From a phage: DNA of 20,506 nucleotides. The stretch lies in the NCBI GenBank assembly GCA_026165385.1, contig GCA_026165385.1_4524.3; one strand, 5' to 3'. Every line of letters begins with the position of its first letter. Position 1 is the stretch's first letter. Of this stretch, positions 728-18,248 are shown piece after piece. A program made the position numbers and the translations under genes. Below the pieces are notes generated by a model, which made no database searches, was not told where the DNA came from, and worked only from the letters and a program-made list of their open reading frames with translations.

Positions 728-756
728 ATTATACTCTGCTCTCAAGAGTTTGTACA
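728..756 (-). promoter_or_regulatory. T4-type early promoter: TGTACA -35, 17-nt spacer, TATAAT -10, with a 7-bp inverted repeat (GAGAGCA/TGCTCTC) across the -10
   Basis: Read directly on the minus strand: TTGTACAAACTCTTGAGAGCAGAGTATAATGCTCTC. Confidence 0.55.
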
Positions 757-759
757 ATT

Positions 760-960
760 TTATTCGGCCATATCAGAACGTTCAAAAAGCTCTTCAACAG
801 TTAAACATTCAGTGTCATCTTCAATAAAGAATCGAGTCCAACACGTTGGGGCGATACAGTTATGAGTTTGTCCGGCGATAGAAGCTACACGAATAAGCTG
901 CTGACCATTATTCAGAACAAATTTTTCACCAATTTCAACATCTTTAAAAAGCTTAGCCAT
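760..960 (-). CDS. Hypothetical early protein, 66 aa
   Basis: ORF preceded by TGAGGAACACAAA-ATG and its own early promoter. Confidence 0.6.
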   Translation of the reverse strand: MAKLFKDVEIGEKFVLNNGQQLIRVASIAGQTHNCIAPTCWTRFFIEDDTECLTVEELFERSDMAE

Positions 961-988
961 TTTGTGTTCCTCATGTTTCAGTAGGACT

Positions 989-1018
989 ACTATACCATAA
1001 TCCTACCTTGTTGTAAAC
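989..1018 (-). promoter_or_regulatory. T4-type early promoter: GTTTACA -35, 17-nt spacer, TATAGT -10, inverted repeat across the -10
   Basis: Minus strand reads GTTTACAACAAGGTAGGATTATGGTATAGTAGTCCTAC; a near copy of the promoter at 1501..1530. Confidence 0.6.
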
Positions 1019-1020
1019 AA

Positions 1021-1131
1021 TTAAATTACATTAAAATATGTTAAAGCCAACCACGTTCCAGTGAACGAACATGCAATGTAAAAACCCGTATCACAAATTG
1101 TTCTTAGTACAATAAGAAGTGCATTTTTCAT
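1021..1131 (-). CDS. Possible small hydrophobic peptide, 36 aa (MKNALLIVLRTICDTGFYIACSFTGTWLALTYFNVI)
   Basis: My own translation; SD TGAGGT 5-6 nt before the ATG; too short to judge by composition. Confidence 0.2.
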   Translation of the reverse strand: MKNALLIVLRTICDTGFYIACSFTGTWLALTYFNVI

Positions 1132-1210
1132 AAGTACCTCAACACAATTGAAAATATTATACAAATCATTGGGATACTAAGCAACCATATTCCTATCCAC
1201 ATTTTAGAGC

Positions 1211-1474
1211 TCATATCTCAACTTCCACAAGTTCCATATATCCTTTGTTGATAACCTCTTTAAGGTCTTTAGAAAGAATAACACTAAAATGGTCGTTCAT
1301 ATGTCCATTAACTAAACGAGTTATTTCGGCTTCAGATGACATATAAGGCACGTCTGAGTCCCAATGAGATAGACCCAAATGGGTATAAATCATCCCTTCG
1401 TCATCTGCAGTGTTGTACATTGAAACAAACTCACCGGTCACTTTATGTTTTGCGTAGAAAAATTTAAATTTCAT
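1211..1474 (-). CDS. Hypothetical early protein, 87 aa
   Basis: ORF with SD (AAAGAGGATAACATC-ATG) and its own early promoter. Confidence 0.6.
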   Translation of the reverse strand: MKFKFFYAKHKVTGEFVSMYNTADDEGMIYTHLGLSHWDSDVPYMSSEAEITRLVNGHMNDHFSVILSKDLKEVINKGYMELVEVEI

Positions 1475-1500
1475 GATGTTATCCTCTTTTAGATAGGACT

Positions 1501-1530
1501 ACTATATCATAGTCCTACTTAGTTGTAAAC
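1501..1530 (-). promoter_or_regulatory. T4-type early promoter: GTTTACA -35, 17-nt spacer, TATAGT -10, with an 8-bp inverted repeat (TAGGACTA/TAGTCCTA) across the -10
   Basis: Minus strand reads GTTTACAACTAAGTAGGACTATGATATAGTAGTCCTAT. Confidence 0.6.
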
Positions 1531-1542
1531 ACTTTTATGAAA

Positions 1543-2100
1543 TTAAAGATGAAGATACCACCCGTTGTAGTTGCTCTTGCGGACGATTTTCTTTAGGTCT
1601 TCATGGTCTCCCACGAACTTTATAGAATAAGAGAAGACGTCAGGTGAGGTTTCTTTGACATCTAATATAATAATGCAATCTGCGACTCGATGATTCAAGA
1701 AGGGCCCTATATTGATTCCATTACCACCAGGATAATCACCACTGTATCCTGTGGTAACGGAAATCCATTTAGAATCTATCTGGTGCGTCTTGACTTCGAC
1801 ACGCAACCCGCAGTATTTAGGATGAGCTAACACGTCCCATGCATACGTGTACGGGTCTTCTACGTCTTCATTACCTTTATTAACGTATCCGTCTAGCCAA
1901 TTTGCTACTACATACTCTGCAAAGACCGCAACCTTACAACGTCGAACTACATCTTCTTTGTTTTGACCAGGATTTTGGCTCAGGGAATACCGAGCAGTGT
2001 CAGCAATCTTCACCTTCATTTCACTAGTCAAAAACTCATTCGACAGGATAAATGTCGGAAGACTCTTCAGCCTCAACAACCCCAAGTTCGTCTTTACCAT
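1543..2100 (-). CDS. denB: DenB-like protein (endonuclease IV position next to rIIB), 185 aa if started at the internal Met with the best SD
   Basis: The track ORF 1543..2163 has no SD at its first ATG; the ATG at 2100 is preceded by CAGAGGTATCT. Name is by synteny and size only. Confidence 0.4.
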   Translation of the reverse strand: MVKTNLGLLRLKSLPTFILSNEFLTSEMKVKIADTARYSLSQNPGQNKEDVVRRCKVAVFAEYVVANWLDGYVNKGNEDVEDPYTYAWDVLAHPKYCGLRVEVKTHQIDSKWISVTTGYSGDYPGGNGINIGPFLNHRVADCIIILDVKETSPDVFSYSIKFVGDHEDLKKIVRKSNYNGWYLHL

Positions 2101-16711: not shown

Positions 16712-16738
16712 GATAGACCTCCATTTAAAGATAAGCCT

Positions 16739-16767
16739 ATCATAACACGAGAGGAGGGAATGTAAAC
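16739..16767 (-). promoter_or_regulatory. T4-type early promoter: GTTTACA -35, 16-nt spacer, TATGAT -10
   Basis: Minus strand reads GTTTACATTCCCTCCTCTCGTGTTATGAT. Confidence 0.5.
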
Positions 16768-16931
16768 TACTTTTTAAGCTTTCCTACTAAAGGTCCATCA
16801 GGACCGGGTTGTTCTAACATGAATAAGGATGCTTTAAAAAGCAATGTCAACCCTTTCACCATTCGATACCATGTCTCAAAGTCTTTTTCCTTGATTTCTA
16901 GTAAGAATTTCTCTTTAAATTTCTCTTTCAT
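16767..16931 (-). CDS. Hypothetical small protein, 54 aa (MKEKFKEKFLLEIKEKDFETWY...), not in the ORF track
   Basis: My own translation; ATG overlaps the upstream stop as ATGA; SD GGAG 9 nt upstream. Confidence 0.4.
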   Translation of the reverse strand: MKEKFKEKFLLEIKEKDFETWYRMVKGLTLLFKASLFMLEQPGPDGPLVGKLKK

Positions 16932-17107
16932 TTCCAAGGACTCCATGGTGGAGGGTCATCATAATAAGAGGCGAGGTCTTTCAGGACTTCTAACGGTAAA
17001 CTAAAGCCGTGTCGTTGTATAATACTATCTAGTTCATCAACAAGTTCACTACGATGCACTTTAGGAGCCTCAACTTCGGACTCATCAAACATACTCATCA
17101 AGTCCAT
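16928..17107 (-). CDS. Hypothetical acidic small protein, 59 aa (start at ATG 17107)
   Basis: The first codon of the track ORF is GTG; an in-frame ATG three codons later sits 1 nt after the upstream stop. Confidence 0.5.
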   Translation of the reverse strand: MDLMSMFDESEVEAPKVHRSELVDELDSIIQRHGFSLPLEVLKDLASYYDDPPPWSPWK

Positions 17108-17108
17108 A

Positions 17109-17573
17109 TTATTCACCGAGATAAAAACTAGCCGGTTCAGAGAATGTTTCTAGTGCTACACCTTTTGTCTTAAAAAATTTCCAAATAGCTCGTTGCAAAT
17201 GGACTAAATCTGCTAATGATGTAATAAAGTATTTTTTGGCAAAATACTTATGGTCTCGCTTTTCAAACAAGTCTAAACGCTTTTCAGGATTCACATAAAC
17301 TGCATTTTCCGTAGATTCATAACCTAAGTCCTTTATGCCTTCTTCAAGACTAAATGGAGAATTTTTAGAACGAGTAATAGCTCCAACTCGCTCTACACGA
17401 ATTTTGTAACCTTTAGGAATCTGCAATTTGTAGAATTCTTCTACGATATATTGCGGATTATTTAGACTTTTGTTAATTAGAATAGCTATTTCTAGTGGAG
17501 TCTTATCTTCCACTGGTATATGTTTAAACGATTTGGCTTCAAGCAAATACATTTTAAATAGCATAGCATCCAT
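17109..17573 (-). CDS. Hypothetical protein, 154 aa (in the position T4 uses for mrh)
   Basis: Strong SD (CGAGGAAATTATA-ATG); start overlaps the upstream stop as TAATG. Confidence 0.65.
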   Translation of the reverse strand: MDAMLFKMYLLEAKSFKHIPVEDKTPLEIAILINKSLNNPQYIVEEFYKLQIPKGYKIRVERVGAITRSKNSPFSLEEGIKDLGYESTENAVYVNPEKRLDLFEKRDHKYFAKKYFITSLADLVHLQRAIWKFFKTKGVALETFSEPASFYLGE

Positions 17574-17752
17574 TATAATTTCCTCGATGGTTCACCCATA
17601 TAAAGTTTTACAATACGTTCGCCTTCATCTTCGACGAGCTTCTCTTCATGCTTCTGGAGTTCTTTGACCATTTTCTCTTCAAAAACATCTAACCAATCTT
17701 CTGGTTCGACTCCATCATTCCAGCTTTTAAACCATTTTACTATTCTGTTCAT
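17573..17752 (-). CDS. Hypothetical acidic small protein, 59 aa (MNRIVKWFKSWNDGVEPEDW...), not in the ORF track
   Basis: My own translation; SD AGGGAG; coupled at both ends (ATGA upstream, TAATG downstream). Confidence 0.55.
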   Translation of the reverse strand: MNRIVKWFKSWNDGVEPEDWLDVFEEKMVKELQKHEEKLVEDEGERIVKLYMGEPSRKL

Positions 17753-17949
17753 TCACAGCTCCCTGAGCTTGAACCACAATCAGAATAACTTGACCCAGAA
17801 TCACCAGGCCAAGACGATACGTATGAATGATTATAACTTGAAGAGTTTGAAGCATTAACATGTTTTGTTTTTGGACGAACAACTTCTTCCATCATGCCGT
17901 CACCAATGTATTCCCAAGCCTTTTCATGTGTATCTGGAATCGGCATCAT
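17749..17949 (-). CDS. Hypothetical small protein with a Ser-rich, Cys-containing C-terminus, about 66 aa; start uncertain
   Basis: The track ORF 17749..18072 overlaps the upstream gene; the first ATG after that gene's stop is at 17949; the stop overlaps the next gene's ATG. Confidence 0.4.
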   Translation of the reverse strand: MMPIPDTHEKAWEYIGDGMMEEVVRPKTKHVNASNSSSYNHSYVSSWPGDSGSSYSDCGSSSGSCE

Positions 17950-17962
17950 CCCTTCGCCTGGT

Positions 17963-18190
17963 TTAACAGCAAACAACTTCTTCAGCATCGTAAGCATTAA
18001 TTGTTCCTCGAACAAAACGAACACCACCGTCATCCCAACGGATTTCGGCATTAAATTTGACGTCTTCACCATCCATCATGAATGAGTGTACGACTACATC
18101 ATCGTAATATCCAAGACCGTATTTTAATGAAACTTCTTGAGCAATCAAAGCACCTAATGTGTTATTAGGTTTAATCCAACGATTTAACAT
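17963..18190 (-). CDS. Hypothetical protein, 75 aa (start MLNRWIKPNN)
   Basis: The ATG at 18190 is preceded by AAGAGGAGAACAAT; the track start at 18259 lies in the promoter/terminator region. Confidence 0.6.
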   Translation of the reverse strand: MLNRWIKPNNTLGALIAQEVSLKYGLGYYDDVVVHSFMMDGEDVKFNAEIRWDDGGVRFVRGTINAYDAEEVVCC

Positions 18191-18218
18191 ATTGTTCTCC
18201 TCTTGAGTAAGTAAGAAT

Positions 18219-18248
18219 ATCTTAACACAGTTTTTAGCGGTTGTAAAC
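18219..18248 (-). promoter_or_regulatory. T4-type early promoter: GTTTACA -35, 17-nt spacer, TAAGAT -10
   Basis: Minus strand reads GTTTACAACCGCTAAAAACTGTGTTAAGAT. Confidence 0.5.

Follow-up and report, generated by a model that had tools for sequence, protein, structure and literature searches.

Early-promoter stem-loop cassettes in an RB69-group phage and hairpins that probably act in read-through RNA

Why do early promoters of a T4-type phage carry inverted repeats across their -10 elements, and do these repeats act as DNA or as RNA? The question is raised by a stretch of phage DNA of 20,506 nucleotides (NCBI GenBank assembly GCA_026165385.1, contig GCA_026165385.1_4524.3), hereafter called the window, in which a first-pass annotation had noticed several promoters of this kind. 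The window matches Escherichia phage ChristianSchoenbein (Bas46), which belongs to Mosigvirus in the RB69 group, at 97.9% identity from end to end, and judged by its sequence the window phage is an RB69-like T-even phage (Mosigvirus) of which we see the early region from ndd to gene 61. Our analysis led us to the view that the elements are probably cassettes of the type known as PeSL (early promoter plus stem-loop), and that their hairpins act as RNA and do so only in read-through transcripts that were started upstream.

Inverted repeats at eleven early promoters

All open reading frames (ORFs) of the window except one small one lie on the minus strand, and promoters and repeats are therefore described as minus-strand elements. 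Eleven minus-strand sites fit the pattern T[TG]TAC[AT]-N16/17-TAnnnT, and each of them is preceded by a stop codon and followed by a Shine-Dalgarno (SD) sequence with ATG. The location in gaps was checked by comparing ORF and promoter coordinates; the stop codon at 10155-10157, for example, directly abuts the -35 element that begins at 10154. A-rich sequence is present at about -38 to -45 in all eleven cases, and we refer to a promoter packed into such an intergenic gap of roughly 75 nt as a cassette. The promoters, with coordinates from the start of the -35 to the end of the -10 element, are:

756..728, minus strand: early promoter of ndd, TGTACA-17-TATAAT
1017..989, minus strand: early promoter of a 66-aa gene, TTTACA-17-TATAGT
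1529..1501, minus strand: early promoter of an 87-aa gene, TTTACA-17-TATAGT
10154..10126, minus strand: early promoter of cef, TGTACA-17-TATTAT
10733..10706, minus strand: early promoter of a 174-aa gene, TTTACT-16-TATTAT
11689..11661, minus strand: early promoter of the 154-aa MotB paralog, from the pattern scan
12247..12219, minus strand: early promoter of the 164-aa MotB paralog, from the pattern scan
15389..15362, minus strand: early promoter of srd, TGTACA-16-TATTAT
16129..16101, minus strand: early promoter of the 202-aa Mod paralog, no notable repeat
16766..16739, minus strand: early promoter of the 193-aa Mod paralog, TTTACA-16-TATGAT
18247..18219, minus strand: early promoter just downstream of a canonical terminator, weak repeat only

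The first-pass annotation had counted at least eleven T4-type early promoters, and indeed all eleven are found where it had placed them and fit the pattern. When the same pattern was applied to the whole Bas46 genome, it matched 57 times on the minus and four times on the plus strand; 48 matches are followed by SD and ATG, and backbones are common among the copies. Nolan et al. (PMC1524935) predicted 57 early promoters for RB69, a count that equals that of the minus-strand matches in Bas46, and their survey does not mention repeats. The GenBank record of T4 contains no promoter features except for one note naming Pe133295.

The promoters also bear on gene starts. In the case of cef (9870-10142), the longest ORF begins at an in-frame ATG within the promoter (10142), while the real start, which is preceded by an SD sequence, is at 10097. 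In the Bas46 record, the annotated start of the MotB paralog (11171-11698) lies upstream of the paralog's own promoter. Three tandem paralogs of the MotB family (Pfam PF17613; 139, 154, and 164 aa) are encoded at 10739-12187, and two of the three are preceded by near-identical promoters, both with CCAAGGATGGnTGGAGTATA. The paralogs of the Mod ADP-ribosyltransferases (15464-16711), neither of which gave a match to a Pfam model, have one early promoter each; in T4, modB and modA overlap and have a single common promoter.

The inverted repeats fall into three classes. In class I, the 5' arm is situated in the spacer and the 3' arm extends from the last T of the -10 element through the discriminator. 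In class II, the 5' arm directly follows a TTTACT -35 element and consists of an anti-SD sequence (TTCTCC...). Class III is a short palindrome (CAACCAaggaTGGTTG) between the -35 and -10 elements. The following features were found, with fold z-scores computed against dinucleotide shuffles:

721-744, minus strand: class I hairpin TGAGAGCA/TGCTCTCA, 8-bp arms, loop 8, -13.9 kcal/mol, z -3.5
980-1007, minus strand: class I hairpin GGUAGGAUUAU/GUAGUCCUACU, 11 pairs including one U.G, -13.6 kcal/mol, z -4.1
1493-1518, minus strand: class I hairpin of the GUAGGACUAU/AUAGUCCUAU type, 10 pairs, -13.2 kcal/mol, z -3.9; perfect 8-bp core at 1494-1517
10121-10140, minus strand: class I hairpin GGTCTAT(G)/(U)ATAGACC, 8 pairs, -10.0 kcal/mol, z -3.9
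10684-10728, minus strand: class II hairpin, 12+6 pairs, 2-nt bulge, -23.9 kcal/mol, z -5.5
16704-16749, minus strand: class II-like hairpin of the 193-aa Mod paralog, 16 pairs, -22.5 kcal/mol, z -4.5
15307-15374, minus strand: weaker long-range helix between the -10 region and the start-codon region of srd, weakly class II, -14.7 kcal/mol, z -2.3
11670-11685, minus strand: 6-bp repeat CATCCA/TGGATG between -35 and -10, 154-aa MotB paralog
12228-12243, minus strand: 6-bp repeat CAACCA/TGGTTG between -35 and -10, 164-aa MotB paralog, -6.9 kcal/mol, z -2.4
18227-18251, minus strand: weak 7-bp repeat across the -35 element

The first five of these features correspond to the repeats that had been reported for the promoters at 728, 989, 1501, 10126, and 10706; all five are present and bracket the -10 element. 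The remaining five are missing from the first-pass annotation. No Rfam family was recovered at the gathering threshold.

Could such repeats be expected by chance in AT-rich sequence, or have hitch-hiked on a single duplicated promoter copy? The promoters at 989 and 1501 are indeed paralogous copies, as are those at 11661 and 12219, and the -10 consensus is itself partly palindromic. However, perfect stems of at least 6 bp occur at seven of the eleven promoters when 1.45 are expected from dinucleotide shuffles (none of 500 reached seven), and stems of at least 7 bp at five of the eleven (0.43 expected); a stem of at least 6 bp lies within or overlaps the promoter in 8/11 cases. As a control that keeps position-specific composition, we built chimeras from the 5' half of one promoter and the 3' half of another. 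The search over early promoters genome-wide that had been proposed along with the first-pass annotation was run on Bas46, which is 98% identical, and on T4, and the results were well above these controls: a perfect repeat of at least 8 bp straddles the -10 element in 17 of the 48 predicted early promoters of Bas46 compared to 3.5% of chimeras, and one of at least 7 bp is present in 13/36 promoters from three quarters of the T4 genome, compared to 4.1% of chimeras. The frequency expected for AT-rich sequence is thus exceeded about tenfold in both types of control. In addition, arms of many unrelated sequences form their pairs in an identical register, and double-sided changes occur inside one homologous family, as shown below. 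The inverted repeats are real and selected, and an origin by chance or hitch-hiking, refuted by the shuffle and chimera controls, is so improbable that we rejected it.

Selection on the folded sense strand

The level at which selection acts was approached through homologues. An IMG/VR pattern scan for the backbone of the 756..728 cassette (TACAAACTCT-N8-GRGTATAAT) returned 33 instances; once the copies from Bas46 and from T4, where the cassette lies upstream of motB, were added, the set comprised 20 distinct sequences. Locus searches in IMG/VR with single proteins (Ndd and the 174-aa protein) yielded only relatives with at least 97% identity and were useless for covariation. In the homologues of the 756..728 cassette the flanks are almost invariant, and the arms read GAGAGC/GCTCTC, GGGAGC/GCTCC(C/T), GGGACC/GGTCC(C/T), GGGGTC/GACCCC, or AGGAGC/GCTCCT. 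Among the 20 sequences, 98.8% of the cells hold standard pairs as opposed to 87.2+-1.7 in shuffles (reached by 0/500), five of the eight pairs are altered on both sides, and the covariation score amounts to 0.485 compared to 0.253 after shuffling (again 0/500). Slid registers attain only 34-52%.

A second test was made on Bas46 and T4 promoters whose spacer measures 17 nt, 65 in number, which were aligned without selection or gaps in a fixed register with a loop of 8. The number of paired cells, the number of cells changed on both sides, and the covariation score all beat 500 of 500 shuffles as well as all slid registers; covarying pairs and pair types are not more numerous than in shuffles. 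The internal cells that depart from Watson-Crick pairing comprise, on the sense strand, eight G.U, no A.C, and one other combination, and in the alignment of the 20 homologues G.U and U.G are the only such types, bar two terminal cells. Transitions should yield A.C as often as G.U, and the bias toward G.U therefore speaks for folding of the sense strand. It appears that the hairpin has been selected in this form, most simply as RNA, and not as a protein site in duplex DNA or as a cruciform.

This bears directly on the proposal that the palindromes function at the DNA level, either as operators that bind a dimeric (phage) protein or as cruciforms that extrude, and in this way control early promoters, for example during shut-off. 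The repeats overlap the -10 element and the discriminator, so that a protein bound there would stand in the way of RNA polymerase, and the mechanism of early-promoter shut-off has been described as not fully understood (PMC3014915). On the other hand, the arms vary so widely among promoters that no common recognition sequence can be discerned; the conserved feature is the pairing and not the sequence. A duplex or a cruciform would not give rise to the strand asymmetry just described, loops of 8-30 nt are poor for extrusion, and only about 40-50% of early promoters have the repeat at all. We consider a palindromic operator or cruciform very unlikely and rejected it, given that there is neither a shared recognition sequence nor a strand-symmetric constraint.

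It is also conceivable that the elements are recombination linkers devoid of any RNA or regulatory role, serving modular shuffling and the formation of mini-circles, with the stem as a DNA target of recombination proteins. Published crossover points in RB49 and phi1 fall in or near the stem-loop (PMC2839356), and in the window the 174-aa gene, which is absent from T4, has a cassette on both sides. However, the sense-strand asymmetry and the compensatory changes are signs that a folded single strand has been under selection, the arms of class II are tied to the ribosome-binding site (RBS), and the only indel that separates the window from a close relative, phage mobillu, affects soc.1/soc.2 and is not flanked by cassettes. 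As the sole explanation, recombination linkers are improbable; a linker role is not exclusive of a role as RNA.

Predicted start sites, read-through RNA, and masked ribosome-binding sites

If the hairpins act as RNA, as we think probable, the position of the transcription start becomes decisive for which transcripts contain them. We took as predicted +1 the conserved A that is the seventh nucleotide after the -10 element. This base is A in 38 of 48 Bas46 promoters, where it opens a conserved ATC(AA) motif, and for T4 the same rule gives the record's own promoter name, Pe133295. It also agrees with the C-rich positions -3 to -1 that Nolan noted for RB69 (PMC1524935). No paper on start-site mapping for T4-type phages was found in our literature search.

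Relative to the predicted +1, the last bases of the class I 3' arms fall between -2 and +2 in all four cases. The hairpin at 721-744 extends from -23 to +1 with the -10 element in its loop, and that at 10121-10140 ends at -2. The promoter's own RNA would therefore contain essentially no hairpin, and only RNA started upstream would form one. According to the first-pass annotation, a promoter's own transcript carries just the 3' arm and read-through RNA the whole hairpin. The first part applies to 10684-10728, where the 3' arm occupies +4 to +16, and fails for the other four, whose arms end at -2 to +2; the second part is correct, and the predicted +1 lies either at the 3' end of the hairpin or, in class II, between the arms.

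In class II the anatomy itself suggests what a hairpin in read-through RNA might do. At 10684-10728, the anti-SD sequence TTCTCCTCTGGTT in the promoter spacer pairs with AACCAGAGGAGAA, the SD sequence in the leader of the 174-aa gene, and an inner GATAT/ATATC helix carries the -10 element at its top. The read-through RNA folds at -23.9 kcal/mol, as opposed to 0 kcal/mol for the gene's own, unstructured leader. At 16704-16749, it is the SD-AUG region of the 193-aa Mod paralog that is engaged by bases of the spacer and the -10 region, and the own transcript is again computed to be unstructured (0 kcal/mol). The computed probability that the RBS is unpaired is 0.26 in read-through RNA and 0.62 in the own RNA for the 174-aa gene, 0.19 and 0.61 for the 193-aa Mod paralog, and 0.19 and 0.40 for srd; at class I promoters, RBS accessibility as computed is little altered between the two types of RNA.

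Class II is not confined to the window. Spacer and leader are complementary over at least 10 bp at 4/48 Bas46 promoters, those of regB and denV included, compared to a fraction of 0.0009 among chimeras. An anti-SD/SD helix is found at the regB promoter in both Bas46 (MZ501056, about 130497) and T4 (about 62796); the T4 promoter has the same architecture built from other pairing bases. With such a helix, the GGAG site of RegB autoregulation would therefore be hidden in read-through RNA. Furthermore, a second IMG/VR scan (GTTTACTTCTCC...) revealed that the bases adjoining the anti-SD sequence covary with the leader, the variants being CATG, CTAC/GTAG, CAACTAG, AACCAG, CAACTACT, and AACCACT.

Masking hairpins with an internal promoter are established for the T4 genes e, soc, 49, and I-TevI (PMC3014915). 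There, as predicted here, SD and AUG are sequestered in the long RNA, and a promoter inside the structure gives rise to a transcript without the 5' arm. In these T4 genes, however, the internal promoter is late (gp55-dependent, TATAAATA) and the control is temporal, whereas in class II an early sigma-70-type promoter is involved, its spacer doubles as the anti-SD sequence, and control would depend on the promoter from which an RNA originates and not on early versus late timing. Class II is best described as a variant of the e/soc/49/I-TevI principle, and its early version is mentioned neither in the PeSL papers nor in the T4 review. The classical soc arrangement is conserved in the window as well, with the late promoter TATAAATA at 18560-18567 (minus strand) and a hairpin at 18522-18559 in which a 13-pair helix sequesters the AUG region (-14.8 kcal/mol, z -3.0); RNA begun inside the 5' arm is unstructured.

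From this anatomy and the established precedent we infer the following mechanism for class II. A helix in read-through RNA would lock up SD and AUG. The masked stretch doubles as a GGAG site of the RegB-sensitive type, so that both translation of the cistron and cutting at this place would be prevented. Transcripts begun at the cassette's own promoter do not include the 5' arm and would be open, and translation of genes of the 174-aa and 193-aa type may thus depend on their own early promoter.

For class I, ordinary intrinsic terminators have to be weighed, that is, terminators of the upstream gene that overlap the next promoter by happenstance. The location right after a stop codon fits this idea, the authors who described PeSLs use the terms terminators and attenuators, and a stem-loop from RB49 cut lacZ expression as strongly as rrnB T1 (PMC2839356). 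Against this stands that no class I hairpin is followed by a U-run on the sense strand, their tails being A-rich (ATCAAAAC and similar), and that their stems are of moderate stability (-10 to -14 kcal/mol). A terminator scan of the minus strand called none of them and at the same time five canonical terminators in the same window. As a G+C-rich hairpin with a direct U-run is not found among class I, the terminator explanation was rejected; we regard it as unlikely. Compared with intrinsic terminators and stabilizing hairpins resembling repetitive extragenic palindromes (REP), the elements share the position of an intergenic stem-loop just after a stop codon, and differ in the missing U-tract, the overlap with a promoter, and the short, moderately stable stems.

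The five canonical intrinsic terminators called in the scan, all on the minus strand, consist of G+C-rich stems with 4-6-nt loops (UUCG in three cases, CGAA in one) followed by U-runs, and these predicted sites exhibit the phage's own type of termination signal:

210-229, minus strand: canonical intrinsic terminator
2344-2359, minus strand: canonical intrinsic terminator
6956-6973, minus strand: canonical intrinsic terminator
8839-8854, minus strand: canonical intrinsic terminator, GGGCTTCGGCCC plus U-run
18263-18284, minus strand: canonical intrinsic terminator

The terminator at 8839-8854 belongs to a region upstream of gene 39 (8812-8854, minus strand) in which it is followed by a middle promoter with a MotA box, as read from the sequence (TGCTT at 8832-8836, TAGAAT at 8812-8817). 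Gene 39 (6972-8789) is a single ORF of 605 aa, where T4 has the split genes 39 and 60, and the region contains neither mobA nor the gene 60 bypass region. A further hairpin (5757-5817, minus strand) is located between the arabinosyltransferase gene and rIIA.1. It has 11+4 pairs, a 29-nt interior, -28.5 kcal/mol, and a z-score of -7.45, and no U-run behind it; no early, middle, or late promoter is recognizable at this position. The equivalent place in T4 is occupied by an ordinary early promoter (T4 2457).

Several observations weigh against the conclusion that the hairpins act in read-through RNA. The start sites, the read-through, and the folding of the hairpins are predictions throughout. 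A hairpin is not needed for a promoter to function, as notable repeats are missing at three of the eleven. Hairpins are found at none of the four promoters located behind a canonical terminator and at 20 of the 44 others, which is consistent with a role in read-through, being in the direction expected for it, though not significant (p=0.13). The cell counts in the covariation analysis overstate the number of independent events because paralogy is common among the promoters, and we estimate about 5-9 independent G.U events. A hairpin in single-stranded DNA of the sense strand would produce the same G.T-only signature. Finally, a U-tract is missing from class I hairpins, which also leave the RBS unmasked, and any function assigned to class I is therefore one hypothesis among several, less certain than the mechanism put forward for class II.

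PeSL cassettes in the RB69 group

Arbiol et al. 2010 (PMC2839356) defined PeSLs in RB49 and phi1 as an early promoter with a stem-loop that is mostly situated between the -35 and -10 elements or overlaps the latter; they demonstrated promoter activity, found that one stem-loop attenuated a reporter, and put forward a model in which cassettes recombine with each other. Comeau et al. 2014 (PMC4122927) extended PeSLs to PST/T4 and nt-1/KVP40, gave the consensus TTTACW-N17-TAYWAT for T4/PST promoters and AGNA-loop-TCNT for the stem, and noted variable arms outside the stem consensus for T4/PST too. The window elements share with PeSLs the strong early promoter with A-rich upstream sequence between a stop codon and SD/ATG, the stem-loop between -35 and -10 or over the -10 element, and the scattering of dozens of copies over early and plastic regions. 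The sequence AGGA...TCCT at 980-1007 and 1493-1518 matches the published stem consensus, and the other arms vary. In contrast, the phage studied here is a Mosigvirus of the RB69 group and thus outside the phages analyzed in the two papers, and terminator activity and mini-circles have been shown only for the G/C-rich stems of RB49 and phi1. The first-pass annotation was correct in describing composite elements of the T4 early type and did not recognize their identity as published PeSLs (PMC2839356, PMC4122927). Our finding is an extension of these elements to an RB69-group phage and not a discovery. The PeSL papers are silent on a hairpin ending at the start site, on the sense-strand G.U signature, and on an anti-SD subclass.

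The cassettes also share leader sequences. An exact repeat of 17 nt had been reported for two leaders; both copies are confirmed and there is no further copy in the window:

10684..10700, minus strand: 17-nt leader repeat, copy 1, leader of the 174-aa gene, TTCTCCTCTGGTTGATA (sense strand TATCAACCAGAGGAGAA)
16079..16095, minus strand: 17-nt leader repeat, copy 2, leader of the 202-aa Mod paralog, exact match to copy 1

The 17-mer is composed of the start-site motif (T)ATCAAC followed by AGAGGAGAA, an SD sequence that is at the same time a RegB-type site. In Bas46, exact matches between leaders reach at least 12 nt in 32 and at least 17 nt in four of 1128 promoter pairs, and the Bas46 modA leader already differs inside the 17-mer. 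The repeat is therefore the consensus leader of the family and reflects common cassette ancestry, with no specific link between the two genes. The consensus for a strong RegB/S1 site is GG*AGRAYARAA, and RNA structure protects GGAG from RegB (PMC3014915). When compared with the RegB/S1 sites in T4 early leaders (PMC3014915), the leader AGAGGAGAAUAAUA closely fits this consensus. Cleavage at the sites in the window is a prediction, and class II hairpins are candidates for protecting them from RegB.

The genes served by or surrounding the cassettes include ac, ndd, denB, rIIB, rIIA, the gene for hydroxymethylcytosine (hmC)-arabinosyltransferase, gene 39, goF, cef, and the three MotB paralogs, and furthermore dexA, dda, srd, the two Mod paralogs, mrh, soc, 56, and 61.

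Taken together, each cassette would consist of a strong sigma-70-type early promoter across which a hairpin is encoded, with the start site at the 3' end of the hairpin (class I) or between its arms (class II). In class I, the hairpin may mark off the end of the RNA of the upstream cistron as a structured boundary and thereby insulate neighboring cassettes. Candidate roles for such a boundary are an attenuator or pause, a barrier to 3'-exonucleases after cleavage in the A-rich leader or at GGAG, a cover for AU-rich promoter sequence and the untranslated AU-rich gap, or a shortening of the distance from stop codon to SD sequence.

More broadly, it is possible, though we consider it doubtful, that promoter-embedded hairpins constitute a genome-wide RNA-level insulation code in T-even phages, in which the fate of an early cistron, that is, its translation, its cutting by RegB at GGAG, and the protection of its 3' end, is set by the promoter from which the RNA originates. 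If so, some proteins such as RegB, DenV, a Mod paralog, and the 174-aa protein would be confined to immediate-early expression from their own promoters, and this could help to explain how GGAG sites in longer transcripts escape RegB. Beyond what is contained in the PeSL papers and the T4 review, the analysis adds covariation of the RNA type on the sense strand, hairpins that end at the start site, and a recurrent anti-SD subclass. These three points turn the label "terminator/attenuator" into testable mechanisms by which densely packed early genes may be insulated from each other, and they suggest how RegB might discriminate between transcripts.

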